A stretch of DNA of 8,396 nt. Source: a virus (taxonomy: Duplodnaviria; Heunggongvirae; Uroviricota; Caudoviricetes). Location of the stretch: positions 1-8,396 of the IMG/VR virus record IMGVR_UViG_2778261464_000009. One strand, given 5' to 3'. Under the pieces are notes generated by a model. The model did no database searches. It worked only from the letters and a program-made list of their open reading frames with translations, and was not told the origin of the DNA. This document shows positions 1 through 8,396 of the stretch, in pieces; positions within the stretch are counted from its first letter, which is position 1; every line of letters begins with the position of its first letter. Both the position numbers and the translations under genes were made by a program.

Positions 1-69
1 AATAATTTCTGGTCAGACTCTGAATACCGACTCAATAAACACGGCTCTGTATTAAATGCTGTATTAATC

Positions 70-267
70 ATGCTGGCGCAACATGCTCTGCTTATAGCAA
101 TTTCAAGCGACTTAAATGCATATGGTGTTGTGTGTGAGTTCGACTGGAATGATGGAAATGGTCAGGAAGGATGGCCTCCAATGGATGGTAGCGAAGGAAT
201 AAGAATTACCGATATCGATACATCAGGAATATTTGATTCAGATGATATGACTATCAAGGCCGCCTGA
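70..267 (+). CDS. Hypothetical acidic protein; may be the C-terminal part of a longer CDS, since this frame has no stop back to position 1
   Basis: ORF track 70..267; the same frame is open from nt 1. No Shine-Dalgarno before ATG 70, so the true start may lie upstream of the window. A GC hairpin follows the stop. Confidence 0.3.
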   Translation: MLAQHALLIAISSDLNAYGVVCEFDWNDGNGQEGWPPMDGSEGIRITDIDTSGIFDSDDMTIKAA

Positions 268-342
268 GTGCGGCTTTACCGCATACCAATAACGCTTCAC
301 TCGAGGCGTTTTCGTTATGCAATCAAACAGAAGGAGAATCCT

Positions 343-513
343 ATGCAACAGTTCGCTATTGCAGGGGCGGCATCGGTTCGCCCTTTCAACCCGATTTTAT
401 CGGTACAGCATTCACGAAAAAATATTTTAACCGGAGCAGACTTTAAACAACCAAGAATGAAAAGTTTGCTCGAAAAGCTTTGGGATATTTTTAAACAACA
501 AGGCCGTCCATGA
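343..513 (+). CDS. Small hypothetical phage protein (56 aa); the track ORF 268..513 trimmed to the RBS-supported start
   Basis: AGGAG at 332-336 sits 6 nt before ATG 343. The stop TGA 511-513 overlaps a downstream ATG at 510 (ATGA). Confidence 0.35.
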   Translation: MQQFAIAGAASVRPFNPILSVQHSRKNILTGADFKQPRMKSLLEKLWDIFKQQGRP

Positions 514-620
514 GTTTTACAGATAACTGGTCAGACGAAGAATTCATTCGTCAGATGAAAGAAATGCTCAATCAGCACAAAGAACAGGAGAAAGATGATG
601 ATTCTGACTCTGAAAGATGA
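510..620 (+). CDS. Possible 36-aa acidic micro-ORF (MSFTDNWSDEEFIRQMKEMLNQHKEQEKDDDSDSER)
   Basis: ATG 510 overlaps the upstream stop. Weak RBS (AAGG). It overlaps the next CDS by 26 nt in another frame. Not in the ORF track because of its size. Confidence 0.2.
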   Translation: MSFTDNWSDEEFIRQMKEMLNQHKEQEKDDDSDSER

Positions 621-906
621 GCGTGAAATATCGCAAATAATCGCAAGTTTTACTGATGAAGATTACGAACGAATCAACAGTGAAGTTGATCGCCTCTGCA
701 AACGTTGCGACCCAATAAGCGAAATGCTTCGCTCATATAAACCAGATGAACACACTAAGGACGCTATCGACTGGCTGGAAGATTATGACTGTAACTATCA
801 GGAAAAAGCCGCTGAATGGTTCTGGGATGCAATAACCGAAAGAGTTAAGGCTGAATATGCCTTCGCAATATTCAAACGCAGACACGTTTATGGAGAAGCA
901 GCATGA
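595..906 (+). CDS. Hypothetical phage protein (103 aa), translationally coupled to recT
   Basis: AGGAG at 586-590; ATG at 595 and 598 (598 gives the better spacing). Stop TGA 904-906 overlaps the recT ATG 903 (ATGA). No recognisable family. Confidence 0.55.
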   Translation: MMILTLKDEREISQIIASFTDEDYERINSEVDRLCKRCDPISEMLRSYKPDEHTKDAIDWLEDYDCNYQEKAAEWFWDAITERVKAEYAFAIFKRRHVYGEAA

Positions 907-1814
907 GCAATATCGTTGAATTCGTTAAACAGCAAGAGCAGTTATTCTGCGGAGCATTGACTGAACAGACGGTGACATGGGCTAAGGAAAGCCAGTTTGC
1001 AATTCAGTATTTCCAGAAAAATGATTACCTGGCTAAAACAGCACTGGCAAATCCAACCAGCGCACAGAACGCCATCATCAATGTTGCGGCGATCGGTATC
1101 ACCTTAAACCCGGCTAGCAAACTGGCTTATCTGGTTCCGCGCGACGGCATGGTGTGCCTTGATATCAGTTATATGGGATTGCTCCATATTGCAATGGAGT
1201 CTGGTGTTATCTCATGGGGTCAGGCAAAACTTGTTCATGCTAACGATACCTATGAGTCAAACGGGCTTGATAAAGCACCAACCCATAAATACAACGCCTT
1301 CGGTGATCGTGGTGATATTGTTGGCGTTTACTGCACAGTTAAGACGCCAGCAGGTGATTATCTAACGGAAGAGATGAGTCTGGCTGAAATTGAGGCTGTA
1401 AGGAAAACAAGCAAGGCAGCATTCAGCGATAAAGGACCATGGGTAAATCACTGGAATGAGATGGCGCGAAAGACGGTCGTAAAGCGTGCAAGCAAGTATT
1501 GGCCTAAGGCATCACGTCTTGATAGTGCTATTCACGTACTAAACGAAGAAGAAGGTGTGTGGACTGAACCAGTTATGCCGCACAAATCAGAGGAAGATAT
1601 CCGCGAAGATGAACGGAAACGCCAGCAGGAAATAATGGATAAAGCACAACTTCTTTGCGATGAAATGGCTCAGGCAGAAAACATGGATGATTTGAAGCGA
1701 TATTTTGCAGAAGCATATCGCCTGACATCTGGAATGAAATTGCAGCAGAACGTACAAGCCATTTACATAGAATGCAAAGCGAAACTGGAGGTTGCCAGTG
1801 AGCAAACTGTATGA
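903..1814 (+). CDS. recT: RecT-family single-strand annealing recombinase
   Basis: 303-aa product with the segment GPWVNHWNEMARKTVVKRASKYWP, which closely matches the conserved E. coli RecT region GPWVTHWEEMAKKTAIRRLFKYLP as recalled. GGAG 7 nt upstream of ATG 903. Confidence 0.85.
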   Translation: MSNIVEFVKQQEQLFCGALTEQTVTWAKESQFAIQYFQKNDYLAKTALANPTSAQNAIINVAAIGITLNPASKLAYLVPRDGMVCLDISYMGLLHIAMESGVISWGQAKLVHANDTYESNGLDKAPTHKYNAFGDRGDIVGVYCTVKTPAGDYLTEEMSLAEIEAVRKTSKAAFSDKGPWVNHWNEMARKTVVKRASKYWPKASRLDSAIHVLNEEEGVWTEPVMPHKSEEDIREDERKRQQEIMDKAQLLCDEMAQAENMDDLKRYFAEAYRLTSGMKLQQNVQAIYIECKAKLEVASEQTV

Positions 1815-2280
1815 AATTGCCAATGAATACGCAAAATTGATGGATTCAGATTTAGAACCAGAGATGATTGCTGACACAATAGAAGGCATGGAAGGAGAAT
1901 TTACCGATAAAATAGAGCAACTTCTTGCCATTATTAAAAATGAATCTGGTTATGCTGAACGCCTCAAGGAAGAGGCAAGGTCGCTGAATGAGCGAGCCGC
2001 AGTAATTCAAAATAAGATTGACAGCATTATGGCGTATATAGCGGCATCGCTTGAAATGGTTGGCAAGAAAAAGATTCGAGCAGGTATTCACCAGGTAACA
2101 ATCCGCAAACCGTCAGAAATTGTAGAAATAATCGACTCAAGCGCCCTTCCTCCTGAATACGTTGAGTTTGAAACGACAATTAAAGCCGACAAACTGGCAA
2201 TCAAACACCAACTAAAAGCAGGAATAAATATCCCCGGTGCTCAACTCAAAGTTGGGAAACCTTCACTTCTTATCAAATAA
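1798..2280 (+). CDS. Siphovirus Gp157-family protein (often partnered with phage annealing proteins)
   Basis: N-terminal LYEIANEYAKL...IADTIEGMEGEF, then a coiled-coil, then a C-terminal VTIRKPSEIVEIID...LPPEYV...IPGAQL pattern, consistent with the Gp157 family as recalled. GGAGG at 1787-1791 is 6 nt before GTG 1798; the track start TTG 1792 is the alternative. Overlaps the recT 3' end. Confidence 0.6.
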   Translation: MSKLYEIANEYAKLMDSDLEPEMIADTIEGMEGEFTDKIEQLLAIIKNESGYAERLKEEARSLNERAAVIQNKIDSIMAYIAASLEMVGKKKIRAGIHQVTIRKPSEIVEIIDSSALPPEYVEFETTIKADKLAIKHQLKAGINIPGAQLKVGKPSLLIK

Positions 2281-2291
2281 CGGTATCGCCT

Positions 2292-2606
2292 ATGAAAAAG
2301 ACTCCATGGGAGAAATGGGAAGTCGATTTCTTGCGCGAGGTAGCGGCGACAATGCCAGTTGAAGTTATCGCAGAAAAACTGGAAAGGACTGAAAAAGCAG
2401 TAATGGCGAAAGCAACAAGGATTGGCGCTGACATTGTTAGCCGACTTCGTGGAAGACGCTGGACAAGAGCCGAAGTATCACTTTTCGGTAAGTTCTCCGC
2501 AGAAGAAATAGCAATTGCAACCTGCCGCTCAATTTATTCAGTAAGAGCTATGCGATACAAGCTAAAAAAACTCGATGAAGAAAGAGCAGGCATACAAATA
2601 AATTAA
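2292..2606 (+). CDS. Hypothetical protein (104 aa) with two internal helix-rich repeats, possibly a Myb/HTH-like DNA-binding fold
   Basis: ORF track. Two similar segments ([32 protein letters not shown] and [31 protein letters not shown]). Weak RBS. Confidence 0.5.
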
Positions 2607-2622
2607 CAAAGAGGAATTTACC

Positions 2623-2787
2623 ATGAGAGGGCTTGCATACAATCCCGGCATTCTTCCGGCAGAAATGATTATTCGCCAACGCGTAAAGCCAATGCCATCG
2701 AGAGAGGAATTGCTTAAGAGAAATTCTTTTCCATCAGTAAATCAAAACAAATATCTGAATGCGATGTGGCGGAGTGGGAAGAAATGA
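2623..2787 (+). CDS. Small hypothetical protein (54 aa, basic)
   Basis: AAGAGG RBS before ATG 2623. Stop TGA 2785-2787 overlaps ATG 2784 of the next CDS (ATGA). Below the track length cutoff. Confidence 0.3.
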
Positions 2788-3266
2788 AACAAATGTCACT
2801 AATTGAGATGGATGATTTTCTGAAAGGTAAATGCATCCCACGAGATTTAAAGGTTAACGAAACAAACGCTGAATATCTGGTGCGTAAATTTGCTGAAGCG
2901 GAGGCCAAGTGCGCGGCGCTGGCCGAAGACCAACAGAAAGCGATTGAGTCAATTAAGCAGGCTGATGCGGCTGTTAAGTTGGCACACGAGAAGTTTTCGG
3001 CGCTGGCGGCGGAGAATGCGGGTCTGAAACACGCAATGGCCGTAACTCTTGAGCATGTGTCGGTAACGGATGCAGGGCAGGCCGGAGTTGCTGCAATGAT
3101 TATCAACGATGCCCTACACCACAGCGAAACCCCAACCACCGATGCTTTCCTGGCTGAAGTACGGGCGCAGGGGGTAGAGATGTTTGCTGACCATCTGTTG
3201 TGCCCAGACCTTGATGACACTATCCGTGACTTTGCTGCCCAGCTTCGCAAAGGAGGCAACCAGTGA
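2784..3266 (+). CDS. Ala-rich coiled-coil phage protein, possibly an Ea22-like module
   Basis: Track ORF 2766..3266. ATG 2784 is preferred because of the ATGA coupling and a GGAG at 2770-2773; GTG 2766 is the alternative. The stop overlaps the next start (GTGA). Confidence 0.55.
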
Positions 3267-3832
3267 GCGAAATTAATTACCAGGCACTGCGTGAGGCGGC
3301 AGAGAAAGCAACGTGGGGAGACTGGGACTCATATAAACCACACCGTGGCGCACGTGGTTATGAGGTCCGACTAAGTAGTCAGGCCATTGCGCAACACGTC
3401 CTGAAAAACAACGCTGAATTTATTGCTGCCTTTAATCCAAAGATTGCTTTGGCACTACTGGATGAACGGGAAAGAAACCAGCAATACATCAAACGCCGCG
3501 ACCAGGAGAACGAGGATATTGCGCTAACAGTAGGGAAGCTGAGAGTTGAGCTGGAAGCCGCAGAGAAGCGCATTGCAGAGCTGGAAAGCAACGAAGTCCG
3601 TGAAGTCGGAAATCAGTTTCTTGTTGTTCGCCATCCTGGGAAAACTCCTGTCATCAAGCACTGCACTGGTGACCTGGAAGAGTTTCTGCGGAAGTTAATC
3701 GAACAAGACCCGTTAGTAACTATCGACATCATTACGCATCGCTATTACGGGATTGGCGGTCAATGGGTTCAGGATGCAGTTGAGTATCTGCATATGATGT
3801 CTGACGCTGGCATTCGCATCAAAGGAGAGTGA
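3263..3832 (+). CDS. Ead/Ea22-like family protein
   Basis: AGGAGG at 3251-3256 is 6 nt before GTG 3263. The N-terminus [17 protein letters not shown]... resembles prophage Ea22-like proteins as recalled; central coiled-coil. Position between the recombination module and xis matches lambda ea22. Confidence 0.55.
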   Translation: MSEINYQALREAAEKATWGDWDSYKPHRGARGYEVRLSSQAIAQHVLKNNAEFIAAFNPKIALALLDERERNQQYIKRRDQENEDIALTVGKLRVELEAAEKRIAELESNEVREVGNQFLVVRHPGKTPVIKHCTGDLEEFLRKLIEQDPLVTIDIITHRYYGIGGQWVQDAVEYLHMMSDAGIRIKGE

Positions 3833-3833
3833 T

Positions 3834-4043
3834 ATGGCTATCGCTGCAAGTTACACCATGCATCTCTATTGTGATTGCCTCCAGTGTACAGATGGCAAAT
3901 ATAAGTCGCCAGACTTCGGTGAGTATATCGGTACGTCATGGGCTGGCTGTGCAAAAGAGGCGCGCAAGGACGGCTGGCGAATAAGCAAAGACAAAACACG
4001 TGCTTTTGCGCCCGGGCATAAAGTTTTGAGGATTAACAAATGA
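3834..4043 (+). CDS. Small Cys-rich protein (69 aa), possible zinc-ribbon
   Basis: AGGAG at 3823-3827 before ATG 3834. The CDC-x2-C motif plus a further Cys suggests metal binding. Stop TGA 4041-4043 overlaps ATG 4040. Confidence 0.5.
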   Translation: MAIAASYTMHLYCDCLQCTDGKYKSPDFGEYIGTSWAGCAKEARKDGWRISKDKTRAFAPGHKVLRINK

Positions 4044-4738
4044 CAACTATTACCAGAGAGCGACTGCTGACAATCAGGCAGTGGCGCGAAACATACGGAC
4101 CGGGTAGCAACGTTGTACTGCCAGCAGAAGAAGCGGAAGAACTGGCACGAATTGCACTGGCATCGATCGAAGCGGAGCCTGTAGCGTGGAAATGGCGGCT
4201 TACTAGTCTTTTTGACGGTGTGCAAATTGGCCCGTGGCGGGTGTGTCTTGCGCCACTATCACCCGGCAAGGGGGATGGGTGCAAGACAGAAGCTATTCCA
4301 CTTTACACCGCCCCGCCAGTACCGGTGGTACCTGCTGCATTACCTGAGAACGACGATGAGGACGGGCATGACATTGATTATCTTGAGCCATCTGAAGTTT
4401 ACGCGCTTGGGCGAACATCTGGCTGGAACGCCTGCCGCGCTGCCATGCTTCATAGTGCCGAACCTGTAAGCCAGGCTTACAAGTTGAACGCGCTGGCTGG
4501 CAACTCTCCGGTAACTCCGGATGGTTGGATAAGCTGTAGTGAGCGAATGCCGAACGATAAACAGTATGTTTGGTGTTGGGGTAAGTCTTACGGTTGGACT
4601 GAGTGCGATACCTTCGAAGGGTATTACGATTGGTCGAGAAACAAATGGTGGGCAGTTACTGACGATGGGGAAGAGCCGGCATCGAAAGTAACCCACTGGA
4701 TGCCGCTGCCAGAACCGCCGGAGCAGGATGGTGAATGA
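4040..4738 (+). CDS. DUF551-domain prophage protein (232 aa)
   Basis: The C-terminal region (PDGWISCSERMPNDKQYVWCW...VTHWMPLPEPP) matches the DUF551 signature as recalled. The N-terminal half is a separate, unrecognised domain. Confidence 0.6.
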   Translation: MTTITRERLLTIRQWRETYGPGSNVVLPAEEAEELARIALASIEAEPVAWKWRLTSLFDGVQIGPWRVCLAPLSPGKGDGCKTEAIPLYTAPPVPVVPAALPENDDEDGHDIDYLEPSEVYALGRTSGWNACRAAMLHSAEPVSQAYKLNALAGNSPVTPDGWISCSERMPNDKQYVWCWGKSYGWTECDTFEGYYDWSRNKWWAVTDDGEEPASKVTHWMPLPEPPEQDGE

Positions 4739-4824
4739 TGCCGCCAGTTAAAGTTGTGATTATCACTTTGGTGATGATAGTGATTGCGAGAATCATGTCT
4801 GGTGAAGTTTGGTGGATATGGTAA
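4735..4824 (+). CDS. Predicted 29-aa hydrophobic single-helix membrane peptide (MMPPVKVVIITLVMIVIARIMSGEVWWIW)
   Basis: ATG 4735 overlaps the upstream stop TGA 4736-4738. One continuous hydrophobic stretch with a Trp-rich C-terminus. Two hairpin-plus-T-tract structures follow directly. Confidence 0.3.
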   Translation: MMPPVKVVIITLVMIVIARIMSGEVWWIW

Positions 4825-4857
4825 TGGCTAAGGCAGCAGCAGAGCGCAACTAACAAT

Positions 4858-4882
4858 CCTCGCTCTCGCGGGGATTTCTTTT
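4858..4882 (+). terminator. Putative intrinsic terminator (first of a tandem pair)
   Basis: Stem CCTCGC/GCGGGG (5 Watson-Crick pairs plus one G-U) with loop TCTC, followed by ATTTCTTTT. Confidence 0.4.
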
Positions 4883-4887
4883 ATCTG

Positions 4888-4912
4888 AACTCGCTACGGC
4901 GAGTTTTGTTTT
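4888..4912 (+). terminator. Putative intrinsic terminator (second of the pair)
   Basis: Perfect 7-bp stem AACTCGC/GCGAGTT with loop TACG, followed by TTGTTTT. Confidence 0.45.
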
Positions 4913-4925
4913 ATGGAGATGATAA

Positions 4926-5093
4926 ATGCACTTCCGAGTCACAGGAGAATGGAATGGAGAGCCATTCAACAGAGTTATCGAAGCAGAGAACATCAACGAC
5001 TGCTATGACCACTGGATGCTATGGGCGCAGATAGCACATGCAGACGTAACCAATATTCGAATTGAAGAACTGAAAGAACACCAAGCCGCCTGA
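4926..5093 (+). CDS. Small hypothetical protein (55 aa)
   Basis: GGAG at 4915-4918 is 7 nt before ATG 4926. Product MHFRVTGEWNGEPFNRVIEAENINDCYDHWMLWAQIAHADVTNIRIEELKEHQAA. The stop lies inside a terminator hairpin. Below the track cutoff. Confidence 0.45.
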   Translation: MHFRVTGEWNGEPFNRVIEAENINDCYDHWMLWAQIAHADVTNIRIEELKEHQAA

Positions 5094-5108
5094 TGGCGGT
5101 TTTTTATT
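5083..5108 (+). terminator. Putative intrinsic terminator
   Basis: GC stem GCCGCC/GGCGG(T) with loop TGAT, followed by TTTTTTATT. Confidence 0.45.
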
Positions 5109-5119
5109 GGAGACAAGAA

Positions 5120-5464
5120 ATGTCAGATTTGGCTATGAAGGTTTTGAAATGGCAATCGACTGGCGATGTTGGCATCAGTAGCGCAACTCTTGCCTCAATC
5201 GCATGTGGACTGAAAAAGAATATCTATGGTCATAGCTTCGGTGCTCCACATGACGCAGCCGATTTCCGACGATGCGTTGCGCTTGTCGAGCAGATTCCAG
5301 AAATCAGGGATTCATTCGACAAGGTTGCAAAGCGCGTTCCGGCATTCAAAGGAATCCTCAACGAATGGGATTCCCTCGTTGCTCTGTTGAAGTCTGAAAT
5401 GAAGATACACGGAAACAAAGCACCAGAGACTTACAGAAGAATCAGCGAGCTACGCAAGGACTAA
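5120..5464 (+). CDS. Hypothetical protein (114 aa), uncharacterised accessory gene just upstream of xis
   Basis: Track ORF 5093..5464 trimmed to ATG 5120, which has a GGAG at 5109-5112 with 7-nt spacing; ATG 5093 sits inside the terminator stem. No recognisable family. Confidence 0.55.
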   Translation: MSDLAMKVLKWQSTGDVGISSATLASIACGLKKNIYGHSFGAPHDAADFRRCVALVEQIPEIRDSFDKVAKRVPAFKGILNEWDSLVALLKSEMKIHGNKAPETYRRISELRKD

Positions 5465-5553
5465 CCACAGCCTCACACTCGATGAGGCCTGTTCATTTCT
5501 CAAGATATCCAGACCTACCGCAATAATACCAACGCAATAAATGGAGATTCCAG

Positions 5554-5901
5554 GTGGAAGAAGAAATCTTCACTCGTGAAGAGGCTGCGTCGTATCTGAA
5601 GGTAGACAAAGGCACTATCACGCAGTGGATACGAAGTGGACGACTTCAAGCCGCAAAGATAAATCCAGATAAACCTAAAAGCCCATATCGCATTTGCAAG
5701 TCAGACTGCATTGCGGCGCTTAAGTCTGTGAGACACAATAGCGCGGTGAATGCGGTTGATGTGCAGGAGGTTAAAGCATGTCAATCAAACTACGCGGTGG
5801 CACGTGGCACTGCGATTTCGTCGCGCCAGATGGATCAAGAGTTAGACGCTCTCTTGAAACATCGGACAAAAGGCAAGCGCAAGAACTTCACGATCGTCTG
5901 A
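5554..5901 (+). CDS. xis: Excisionase-family DNA-binding protein (Xis)
   Basis: N-terminal FTREEAASYLKVDKGTITQWIRSGRLQAAKI matches the excisionase-family HTH pattern. GGAG is 7 nt before GTG 5554. It lies directly upstream of int and overlaps it by 124 nt in another frame; the 3' extent is uncertain. Confidence 0.6.
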   Translation: MEEEIFTREEAASYLKVDKGTITQWIRSGRLQAAKINPDKPKSPYRICKSDCIAALKSVRHNSAVNAVDVQEVKACQSNYAVARGTAISSRQMDQELDALLKHRTKGKRKNFTIV

Positions 5902-6938
5902 AAGCAGAAGCGTGGAGAGTAAAAAATCTCGGGGAATCACCGAAAAAGCTATTCAAGGAAGCCTGCATACGGTGGCTGCGTGAGAAATCGGATAAGAAGT
6001 CCATTGATGATGACAAGAGCATTATATCGTTCTGGATGTTGCACTTCAGAGAAACCATTCTCTCTGACATAACAACAGAAAAAATAATGGAGGCGGTAGA
6101 CGGGATGGAAAACCGCCGCCATCGCCTGAACTGGGAGATGAGCCGGGACAGGTGTTTGCGGCTTGGCAAGCCAGTGCCGGAGTATAAACCAAAGCTGGCA
6201 AGCAAAGGAACGAAGACGCGGCATCTGGCAATACTTCGCGCTATTCTCAATATGGCTGTTGAATGGGGATGGCTTGACAGGGCGCCAAAAATATCAACAC
6301 CACGCGTTAAGAATGGACGAATCAGATGGCTTACAGAGGAGGAATCGAAGCGCCTGTTTGCAGAAATTGCTCCTCATTTCTTCCCTGTGGTCATGTTTGC
6401 AATCACGACAGGCCTTCGCCGTTCCAACGTTACAGACCTTGAGTGGTCACAGGTCGATCTGGATAAGAAAATGGCATGGATGCACCCTGATGAAACAAAA
6501 GCTGGCAATGCGATCGGAGTTCCTCTTAACGAAACCGCATGCCAGATATTAAGAAAACAGCAGGGGCTCCATAAGAGATGGGTATTTGTCCACACCAAAC
6601 CTGCCTACCGAAGCGACGGAACAAAAACAGCAGCGGTAAGGAAGATGAGAACCGACAGCAACAAGGCATGGAAGGGAGCGTTAAAGCGGGCAGGCATTAG
6701 CAACTTCCGCTTCCATGACCTGAGGCATACCTGGGCAAGCTGGCTGGTTCAGTCTGGTGTCTCTCTTCTTGCGCTTAAAGAGATGGGAGGATGGGAAACT
6801 CTCGAAATGGTTCAAAGATACGCCCACCTTTCAGCCGGGCATCTCACCGAGCACGCGAGCAAAATCGATGCGATTATAAGTCGCAATGGCACAAATACGG
6901 CACAAGAGGAGAACGTAGTTTACTTAAATGCGAGGTAA
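5778..6938 (+). CDS. int: Tyrosine-type site-specific integrase (phage integrase family)
   Basis: 386 aa. N-terminal arm-type domain (MSIKLRGGTWHCDFVAPDGSRVRRS...). Catalytic residues in context: TGLRRSN, HDLRHTWAS, and Tyr in MVQRYAHL. AGGAGG is 7 nt before ATG 5778. Ends 14 bp from the tRNA. Confidence 0.9.
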   Translation: MSIKLRGGTWHCDFVAPDGSRVRRSLETSDKRQAQELHDRLKAEAWRVKNLGESPKKLFKEACIRWLREKSDKKSIDDDKSIISFWMLHFRETILSDITTEKIMEAVDGMENRRHRLNWEMSRDRCLRLGKPVPEYKPKLASKGTKTRHLAILRAILNMAVEWGWLDRAPKISTPRVKNGRIRWLTEEESKRLFAEIAPHFFPVVMFAITTGLRRSNVTDLEWSQVDLDKKMAWMHPDETKAGNAIGVPLNETACQILRKQQGLHKRWVFVHTKPAYRSDGTKTAAVRKMRTDSNKAWKGALKRAGISNFRFHDLRHTWASWLVQSGVSLLALKEMGGWETLEMVQRYAHLSAGHLTEHASKIDAIISRNGTNTAQEENVVYLNAR

Positions 6939-6952
6939 CTTATTGATTTAAA

Positions 6953-7028
6953 TGGTGCCGATAATAGGAGTCGAACCTACGACCTTCGCATTACGAATGC
7001 GCTGCTCTACCAACTGAGCTATATCGGC
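6953..7028 (-). tRNA. thrW: tRNA-Thr (anticodon CGU)
   Basis: The reverse complement is a 76-nt tRNA: GCCGATATAGCTCAGTTGGTAGAGCAGCGCATTCGTAATGCGAAGGTCGTAGGTTCGACTCCTATTATCGGCACCA. 7-bp acceptor stem, GTTCGA T-loop, anticodon CGT at positions 34-36, encoded CCA end. Confidence 0.9.
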
Positions 7029-7142
7029 CCTGAAAGGACATGTTCACGAACGTGAATCACGGTGGGCAAGGTTAAAACTAACCGGGCGATGCGTCAATGG
7101 CCTTGTGAATCAAATGGCTACTTTTGCATCACCCGGTTTTAT

Positions 7143-8396
7143 TTACGCACGAATGGTGTAATCACCAATGCCGATCCACTTGTAAGTGGTCAGTGCTTCC
7201 AGCCCCATTGGGCCACGCGCGTGGAGTTTTTGTGTGCTTACCGCCACTTCCGCACCCAGTCCAAACTGACCGCCGTCGGTAAAACGCGTAGAAGCGTTAA
7301 CGTAAACAGCGGACGAATCCACTTCGTTAACAAAACGCTGGGCGTTGCGCATATCGCGGGTCAGGATCGCATCGGAGTGTTGTGTGCCGTGTTCACGAAT
7401 ATGGGCGATGGCATCGTCAAGATCGCTGACGATTTTGACGTTCAAATCTAATGACAGAAACTCATCGTCATACTCTTCGGCTTTAACCGCCACCACCTTC
7501 GCGGGGCCAGCCTGCAACTGTGTCAGCGCAGCTGCATCTGCGTGTAATGTCACGCCGCTTTCCGCCATTTGTTTGCTTAATACGGGCAGGAAGCTATCGG
7601 CGATGTTTTTATTCACCAGCAACGTTTCTACCGTATTACATGTGCTCGGACGCTGAGTTTTCGCGTTGACGATCACTTTTAATGCTTCAGCGATCTCTGC
7701 ACTTTCATCAACATAAATATGGCATACGCCTATACCACCTGTGATCACCGGGATCGTCGACTGTTCGCGGCACAGTTTATGCAAACCAGCCCCGCCGCGC
7801 GGGATCAGCATGTCGATGTATTTATCCATACGCAGCATTTCACTGACCAGCGCACGGTCAGGATTATCAATTGCCTGCACGGCACCCGCCGGTAAGCCAC
7901 AGGATTTCAGGGCGTCCTGAATCACCGCCACCGTTGCCGCGTTAGTGCGACAGGTTTCTTTGCCGCCGCGCAGGATCACCGCGTTACCGGTTTTCAGGCA
8001 CAGCGAAGCGACATCAACCGTCACGTTCGGGCGCGCTTCATAAATCACGCCAATAACCCCCAGCGGTACGCGACGACGCTCAAGACGCAGGCCGCTGTCC
8101 AGTACGCCGCCATCGATTACCTGCCCCACCGGATCGGCGAGGTTGCACACCTGACGTACATCGTCGGCAATGCCTTTCAGCCGTGCGGGCGTCAGTGCCA
8201 GACGGTCAAGCATCGCTTCGCTAAGGCCATTGGCACGCGCGTCAGCAACATCCTGGGCGTTAGCGTTGAGGATGATTTTGCTCTGTGCTTCCAGTTCATC
8301 GGCGATTTTTTCCAGCACGCGATTTTTTTCGCGGCTTGAGAGTTGCGCTAATTTATACGAGGCTTGCTTCGCGGCAATGCCCATTTGCTCCAGCAT
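7143..8396 (-). CDS. proA: Gamma-glutamyl phosphate reductase (glutamate-5-semialdehyde dehydrogenase), full length
   Basis: 417-aa product beginning [39 protein letters not shown]... and ending ...[12 protein letters not shown], near-identical to E. coli ProA as recalled. The start codon is at the window's right edge. Confidence 0.95.

Follow-up and report, generated by a model that had tools for sequence, protein, structure and literature searches.

A coupled 28-codon micro-gene in the accessory early region of lambdoid prophages and its predicted membrane microprotein

Can an open reading frame (ORF) of fewer than thirty codons, wedged between the end of a longer phage gene and a pair of terminator hairpins, be recognized as a gene, and what might its product do? 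This question is raised by positions 4735-4824 of an 8,396-nucleotide (nt) stretch of DNA (the window in what follows; positions 1 to 8,396 of the IMG/VR record IMGVR_UViG_2778261464_000009, a virus of the Caudoviricetes), where an initial annotation had described a hydrophobic peptide of 29 amino acids (aa) whose start overlaps the stop of a DUF551 gene as ATGA. Inspection of the sequence confirmed that this frame and this overlap are present. Comparison with divergent relatives suggests that the frame is a real, selected and translationally coupled coding gene for a membrane microprotein, a joint claim that leaves its mode of action aside and to which we assign a probability of about 0.85. 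That 4738-4824 is a protein-coding gene under selection, in which frame, length, start and stop were kept while synonymous sites turned over, is judged on the same comparisons to be very highly probable.

Conservation of the reading frame among relatives

Two in-frame initiation codons, ATG1 (4735-4737) and ATG2 (4738-4740), precede the TAA stop (4822-4824); translation from ATG1 gives MMPPVKVVIITLVMIVIARIMSGEVWWIW, and the DUF551 TGA overlaps ATG1 as ATGA and ATG2 as TGATG. A further in-frame TGA at 4732-4734 closes the frame just upstream and rules out a frameshift fusion with, or an upstream extension into, the DUF551 gene. The conserved start is ATG2, giving a product of 28 aa (MPPVKVVIITLVMIVIARIMSGEVWWIW), while ATG1 is an extra codon of the E. 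coli lineage, replaced by ATA in seven loci (L026, L029, L035, L040, L044, L053 and L071) and not found in the non-E. coli relatives; the frame as originally described therefore stands, and its length of 29 aa does not.

Divergent homologues were obtained by a protein search with the peptide duplicated in tandem, by contig look-ups and by a scan of IMG/VR with an alignment of the peptides. With the tandem query, homologues came up whose gene calls begin further upstream in the same frame (…GGEV-MPPVK…; P0006, P0008, P0009, P0010 and P0011). Altogether, IMG/VR and public assemblies supplied 23 distinct nucleotide sequences coding for 18 peptides, every one exactly 28 codons long from the M of MPPVK, in which a subfamily A (MPPVKVVIITL…AR[ILFM][ML][STA]G[ED][IMV]…[IV]W) and a subfamily B (MPPVKVVVIT…CQLI[STA]…G[IL]W) can be distinguished. 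One of the relatives, L072, lies in a host chromosome whose pgsA is only 86% identical to every E. coli pgsA, indicating that this host is not E. coli and that the family extends beyond this species.

Between the window and its relatives, the ratio of non-synonymous to synonymous substitution rates (dN/dS, by NG86) was 0.07-0.23, with dS ranging from 0.6 to >2, and the synonymous sites are almost saturated although the peptide has been kept. Because MPPVKVV and the C-terminal motif had served as search patterns in IMG/VR, codons 8-28 were retested alone: between the window and L118, 13 of 13 synonymous sites had changed as against 9 of 50 non-synonymous ones (Fisher P=4.8e-8), and a synonymous excess was also obtained in four other window-relative pairs (P=7e-4, 4e-3, 0.011 and 0.012). 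Even the codon for Ser21 differs, being TCT in the window and AGC in L075, L076 and L078. Within subfamily A the corresponding ratio of proportions of changed sites (pN/pS) was 0.19-0.37 in frame versus 0.67 and 1.19 in shifted-frame controls, and the other two forward frames contain internal stops in 23/23 and 13/23 sequences. Related prophages thus clearly display conservation at the amino-acid level together with a synonymous-site pattern, in line with the initial suggestion of a real micro-gene.

Composition offers less to build on. The maximum Kyte-Doolittle hydropathy of the window peptide (19-residue mean) is 2.26, a value reached by only about 1% of the 1,511 ATG-initiated ORFs of 25-40 aa that 466 kb of DNA from related phages contains. 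The window itself holds 32 ORFs of 25-40 aa, one other of which is equally hydrophobic, namely a 30-aa ATG-initiated ORF (MPARFNAPFHALLLSVLIFLTAAVFVPSLR, approximately 6605-6697, minus strand) antisense within the integrase gene int, which is probably a chance ORF. It follows that hydrophobicity alone is weak evidence and that the micro-ORF, taken by itself, is not beyond chance. What places it beyond chance is the comparison, that is, the fixed length of 28 codons, the start and stop overlaps that were kept and the synonymous excess in divergent relatives.

The near-identical copies in E. coli present a different picture. Among 5,426 complete E. coli genomes, 222 carry the segment 4735-4850, in each case at an identity of at least 93%, and the segment is also present in only 10 of 50,697 phage records, including E212, EC.P3 and the Shiga toxin 2 (Stx2) phages 1717, 2851, F349, WGPS4 and WGPS8. 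Of 59 E. coli-type loci, gathered with anchors in the ORF as well as beyond it, all but one keep a frame of 28 to 31 codons that begins with ATG, and in the hydrophobic core (codons 5-21) all five substitution events fall at wobble positions, which is a post-hoc observation. An early leaning towards a leftover spacer ORF, prompted by a truncated downstream gene, by mosaic joints and by the lack of tblastn matches beyond 10 near-identical phages, was overturned by the divergent relatives.

Several observations nevertheless weigh against a selected gene for a membrane peptide. Among the 59 loci, 4 synonymous and 9 non-synonymous substitutions were counted, so that there is no synonymous excess (4/13, P=0.27); the excess at codon position 3 is not significant (7/13, P=0.10), and the density of changed sites in the ORF is not below that of its flanks. 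Positions 24-26 carry radical changes (W, G or V, all three at position 26), one locus (L015) is without either ATG, another (L019) has W28 replaced by a stop, C-terminal frameshifts are found in L077 and P0012, and the 5' end is truncated in BY68 and PEC411. The invariance of residues 1-7 in the family is partly an artefact of ascertainment, MPPVKVV having been an IMG/VR search pattern, and the wobble-sharing antisense frame is uninterrupted in 21 of the 23 distinct sequences. The uninterrupted apolar run of the window peptide, V6-A17 between K5 and R18, comprises only 12 residues, so that its transmembrane status is inferred. Finally, the peptide is not in the supplements of a ribosome-profiling (Ribo-seq) study of O157:H7 Sakai, a negative result on which the repression of prophage early genes in lysogens bears.

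As regards the antisense frame, its 66-aa ORF in the window (4856-4656) was rejected as a candidate, since it is interrupted by stops in 2 of 23 relatives, lacks conserved boundaries and starts inside a different module. In E. coli BY68 (L007, 1495-1570), and also in PEC411 (H293), the truncation is a deletion whose joint lies between the end of abc2, an anti-RecBCD gene, and mid-ORF sequence of the micro-gene (corresponding to window position 4760); the outcome is an open frame of hybrid origin, MALSVMTEEFTILVMIVIARIMSGEIGWIW. In L077 (3001-3111), P0009 and P0012, a G-run close to the micro-gene's 3' end has gained one base, which fuses the micro-gene to a following second micro-ORF, MPNPFD, or to its stub.

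Coupling, neighbours and genomic setting

The arrangement of start and stop codons is as conserved as the frame. In 23 of 23 distinct relatives the upstream stop overlaps the micro-gene ATG (T[GA]ATG, that is, TGATG or TAATG), so the geometry of translational coupling with the upstream gene that had been proposed for the window is conserved across the family. A Shine-Dalgarno (SD) sequence lies within the last codons of the upstream gene in all relatives checked; its counterparts in the window are an SD-like AGGA at 4725-4728 and GGTGA at 4730-4734, inside the last DUF551 codons. The duplex with the anti-SD sequence is calculated at -7.8 kcal/mol for the window, at -10.6 to -12 kcal/mol for most relatives (GGAGGTGA) and at -3.7 kcal/mol for L072, the GGAGG of the relatives standing 7 nt upstream of the ATG with a duplex within the top 2% of the window background.

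The genes on both sides are variable. Upstream genes include DUF551-type genes, a 'VPVEPT'-type gene, a 60-aa gene and others, and most of them end in a linker, …APQQEVK*, which supplies the SD sequence of the micro-gene. This linker, …(A)APQQEVK* (GCAGCACCGCAGCAGGAGGTGAAGTGATG), ends unrelated upstream genes about 24 nt upstream of position 1501 in L118-L132, its counterpart in the window being 4709-4737; mosaic joints lie upstream of it, and it therefore appears to travel with the micro-gene. The DUF551 gene, too, ends in a conserved coupling site: GGAGGTGAAGTGATG is followed by genes that are real but unrelated both in Klebsiella phage ST101-KPC2phi6.1 and in Enterobacter phage BUCT554. Homology of the micro-gene with the 75-aa gene after DUF551 in ST101-KPC2phi6.1 was rejected (59 of 500 shuffles scored as well), and so was the 31-aa ORF after DUF551 in Klebsiella phage ST11-OXA245phi3.2, which is unrelated and not hydrophobic.

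In most relatives the next gene is intact, and its start is then overlapped by the micro-gene stop (TAATG, TGATG, GTGA or ATGGTGA). These followers comprise phrog_536, an ASCH-domain gene (intact in L072, L114 and L121), an 89-aa CxxC gene and the second hydrophobic micro-ORF MPNPFD…(25-26 aa), and no gene of at least 40 aa was found after the micro-gene in L118 and L120. The unit sits before xis/int or in the nin region (L073). As both neighbours differ between genomes, the micro-gene unit moves as a mobile cassette. A possible origin as a remnant of an ASCH-domain (ea8.5-slot) gene was unconvincing in spliced alignment (P ~0.1 and 0.012) and was superseded by the intact ASCH genes that follow the micro-gene.

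The second micro-ORF belongs to an unannotated hydrophobic family in its own right (MPNPFD[AFV][IV]MF[VA]LL…GW..W; L076:570-647, L120:1587-1664, L059:1484-1564 and L075:3261-3347). It measures 25-28 aa (25-26 in three of four intact copies), is followed by the 89-aa CxxC gene and is TGATG-coupled either directly after the MPPVK micro-gene or, in Enterobacter phage BUCT554, after an 81-aa gene. Given the similar layout (MP…, a mid-helix Q and a G-aromatic-W end), it may be a distant paralogue of the MPPVK family.

In the window the downstream partner was lost. An intact 112-aa phrog_536 gene (E=4e-54) follows the micro-gene in L035, L037, L038, L046, L071 and L078, the first five being phiV10/epsilon15-like contigs in which the micro-ORF stop overlaps the phrog_536 ATG as TAATG, and terminase genes come next in L046 and L037. 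Only the start of this gene remains in the window: 4824-4849 is identical in 26 of 26 nt to the 5' end of the phrog_536 gene in L046, L037 and L038 and is joined in frame to a TAA of the lambda-type slot, so that the partner is reduced to a nine-codon stub and replaced by lambda-type terminators and orf55, with the micro-gene intact. Homology to lambda starts at 4851 (window 4851-5100 versus lambda 29111-29360, 97.6% identity), and in lambda the terminator-orf55 module follows ea8.5. An ASCH-domain gene stub of about 11 codons occurs at the same joint in L002 (HK140, ~1760-1800) and L057 (N7, 1240-1276). These stubs end 1-3 nt before the first terminator hairpin, which means that a terminating ribosome could mask the 5' arm of the hairpin.

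The initial annotation had also taken the terminators right after the ORF as an argument for a real gene. Two hairpins are indeed present, beginning 31 nt past the micro-gene stop, but they belong to the lambda-type module starting at 4851 and are no evidence for the gene; EC.P3 has the micro-ORF without terminators, and elsewhere other genes follow the micro-gene directly with no terminator. For the second hairpin there is a matching terminator among those that Bloch et al. [quoted passage not shown] A structured RNA at the locus was rejected, there being no Rfam match and a fold z-score of -2.0 that the terminators account for, and a contig scan with the downstream anchor returned only a chance match, in Pantoea.

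At a larger scale, the window represents the left arm of a prophage of lambdoid or P22-like type with all phage genes on the plus strand, in the order recombination genes, Ead/Ea22-like gene, DUF551 gene, micro-gene, two terminator hairpins, orf55 homologue, a 123-aa ORF, excisionase and integrase. The integrase gene (5778-6938) abuts the integration site, a tRNA-Thr(CGT) gene (6953-7028, minus strand) beside proA (the stretches 6953-7028 and 7143-8396). The DUF551 protein matches PF04448 over residues 162-228 with 63.8 bits against a gathering cut-off of 22. This type of region is known as the 'exo-xis' accessory region of lambdoid phages (PMC10834534, PMC8614690), and the family, to judge from the contigs, resides in accessory parts of the early region of enterobacterial prophages of the lambdoid, P22-like and epsilon15-like kinds, namely in the exo-xis/'ea' region, with some genomes having it in the nin region.

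Table 1. Features of the window around the micro-gene (positions in nt of the window).
Feature	Position	Strand	Basis or remark
Ead/Ea22-like gene	3263-3832	+	precedes the DUF551 gene in the gene order of the window
DUF551 gene	4040-4738	+	Pfam PF04448, E=2.8e-17
DUF551 gene 3' end (…HWMPLPEPPEQDGE)	4690-4734	+	doubles as predicted translation-initiation region of the micro-gene
Extra upstream ATG (ATG1)	4735-4737	+	ATGA overlap; lineage-specific, dispensable
DUF551 stop TGA	4736-4738	+	overlaps both candidate micro-gene starts
Conserved micro-gene, 28 codons + TAA, product MPPVKVVIITLVMIVIARIMSGEVWWIW	4738-4824	+	one predicted transmembrane segment
Nine-codon stub MAKAAAERN* of truncated phrog_536 'transcriptional regulator' gene	4824-4853	+	ATG overlaps micro-gene stop (TAATG)
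Recombination joint between micro-gene/regulator module and lambda-type terminator-orf55 module	4850-4851		alignments with lambda, HK140, 720R6, EC.P3 and L046
Two tandem intrinsic-terminator hairpins	4855-4876, 4887-4906	+	lambda exo-xis module
lambda orf55 homologue	4926-5093	+	phrog_676, E=3.7e-40; next gene of lambda-type module

Predicted membrane product and rival explanations

The product of the micro-gene is probably a membrane peptide, the maximum 19-residue Kyte-Doolittle mean being 2.0-2.4 in 18 of 18 peptides. Across these peptides, residue 18 is R or Q, residue 17 is A or C, residue 21 is S, T or A and W28 is invariant, and this combination of a polar 18, a small 17, S/T/A at 21 and W28 suggests specific helix-helix recognition rather than generic membrane damage; the 'membrane-active' nature put forward in the initial annotation is inferred from composition. 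The best interpretation of these features is a single-pass inner-membrane microprotein made early from the prophage early operon. Transcription would proceed from the early leftward operon after induction, and ribosomes that have finished the DUF551 protein would start again at 4738 (or 4735), synthesize the peptide and, where the arrangement is intact, continue into the following gene. The peptide would cross the inner membrane once, as a helix with K5 on the inner side and its aromatic C-terminus at the outer interface, and would act in trans at the membrane. With regard to its mode of action, binding and modulating a host or phage membrane protein is a tentative proposal whose odds fall slightly short of even, direct membrane perturbation or toxicity appears rather unlikely, and other modes take the remainder. 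An extended and still more speculative model, which we consider doubtful, envisages mobile 'microprotein cassettes' in which the 28-codon gene and its linker (…APQQEVK*, GGAGGTGA) graft onto the C-terminus of an upstream gene and hand ribosomes downstream, the peptide being a trans-acting effector on a host inner-membrane protein that would influence host physiology or lysis-lysogeny, including in Stx2c phages of E. coli O157:H7.

Three other explanations have to be weighed against a coupled gene for a membrane microprotein. The family could be real and the window copy nonetheless a functionless passenger on a recombinant fragment, of which the phrog_536 regulator, afterwards truncated, was the real cargo and in which the ORF is open because the event is recent. 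Such a history would account for a downstream gene cut to a nine-codon stub, for the close identity and statistically neutral substitution pattern of all E. coli copies and for the start-codon loss, nonsense change and 5' truncation seen in a few genomes; it is nevertheless improbable, given that 58 of the 59 loci retain the ORF with 5/5 core changes at wobble positions, that the stub arrangement persists in 222 of the 5,426 complete genomes and in several upstream-gene contexts, and that the peptide, having different downstream partners across the family, is not tied to any one of them. This variation (phrog_536, ASCH-domain gene, 89-aa CxxC gene or second micro-ORF), along with the absence of such a gene in the window, also bears on a role in cis, in which the frame would serve as a leader or coupling ORF: its translation, or the nascent membrane-targeted peptide itself, would bring ribosomes to the following gene or adjust the expression of that gene. 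This idea is compatible with the stop-start overlaps, which are found at both ends whenever the following gene is intact, and with the invariant N-terminal MPP, a potentially slow-to-translate motif, Pro-Pro motifs that depend on elongation factor P being slow to translate. However, a pure coupler would not need conservation of amino acids along the whole helix, which makes a cis role very improbable.

The initial annotation had pointed to a resemblance to type I toxins, and the possibility that the micro-gene is the toxin of a type I toxin-antitoxin module was accordingly considered. Its size and hydrophobic composition are like those of Ibs, ShoB and TisB-like toxins, and a weak promoter-like site is found on the minus strand at 4801-4774. 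On the other hand, the micro-gene has no promoter or 5' untranslated region of its own, its start overlapping the stop of the preceding gene in every relative; no unit for an antisense RNA was found, the promoter-like site being the sole minus-strand match, at chance level and with no minus-strand terminator nearby; and there was no match to Rfam or to NCBIfam, Pfam or PADLOC toxin models. The resemblance thus fails on transcription unit, antisense RNA and family match, leaving length and composition alone alike, and this explanation is extremely improbable.

Significance and relation to known small proteins

The micro-gene has largely escaped annotation. The initial expectation that ORF callers would miss it holds for RefSeq/PGAP, which has no call in the records inspected, and only in part elsewhere, since gene calls in GenBank, IMG and Logan sometimes include the exact peptide under the name 'hypothetical protein'; when 1.84 billion representative proteins were searched with a profile, only five called members came up, because 28-codon ORFs fall below gene-caller limits. 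No match to the peptide was found in Pfam, PHROGs, NCBIfam, PADLOC or PDB sequences, and no Rfam family matched at the locus. The peptide strings are absent from a body of 8 million full texts, literature searches for small exo-xis ORFs of this sort found nothing, and a search of an exo-xis modelling review of 2021 (PMC8614690) turned up neither the word 'transmembrane' nor anything like the micro-ORF. Small phage proteins are well recognized as a class (PMC11323111), and within it the sequences define an undescribed family of 28-residue hydrophobic peptides, MPPVKVV[IV]IT…W.

A conserved gene is missing from the RefSeq annotation of about 4% of complete E. coli genomes (222/5,426), among them many O157:H7 strains, and of Stx2-converting phages such as 1717 and 2851. 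With its predicted product, the micro-gene would bring a membrane component into the exo-xis region, which is poorly understood and whose genes have been reported to tip the choice between lysis and lysogeny in lambda and in Stx phages. The micro-gene is also a worked example of method, as a sub-30-codon ORF that is statistically neutral among close copies was validated only through divergent relatives, while the portable linker and coupling architecture illustrates how phage mosaicism can move micro-genes without disturbing operon translation.

The place of the micro-gene among known systems can be outlined by comparison. It is like the Ibs, ShoB, TisB, Ldr and Hok toxins in length and hydrophobic composition, but differs from them in having no transcription unit of its own, no antisense RNA and no family match. 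Enterobacteria have several small single-pass inner-membrane proteins, including MgtS (31 aa), PmrR (29 aa), AcrZ (49 aa) and MgrB (47 aa), which the micro-gene peptide resembles in being shorter than 50 aa, in having one hydrophobic helix and in having been overlooked by annotation; its conserved polar and small helix residues are compatible with binding to a larger membrane protein. There is, however, no sequence relationship with them, and the micro-gene is phage-borne, promoterless and placed inside a tightly coupled early phage operon. Its closest neighbours by location are the lambda exo-xis genes (orf60a, orf61, orf63, orf73, ea8.5 and orf55; PMC8614690, PMC4195576), with which it shares the neighbourhood from recombination genes to xis/int, a mosaic inheritance in the manner of cassettes and, presumably, early transcription within the leftward early operon, whereas the proteins of these lambda genes are soluble and have been modelled or solved, and lambda itself is without the micro-gene, its homology to the window starting only downstream of it, at the recombination joint. 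Lambda Kil and T7 Gp0.4, reviewed in PMC11323111, are likewise small early phage products, yet they act on FtsZ and are not predicted membrane helices. By analogy with these phage proteins, a role of the micro-gene in host takeover or in the lysis-lysogeny balance is plausible.

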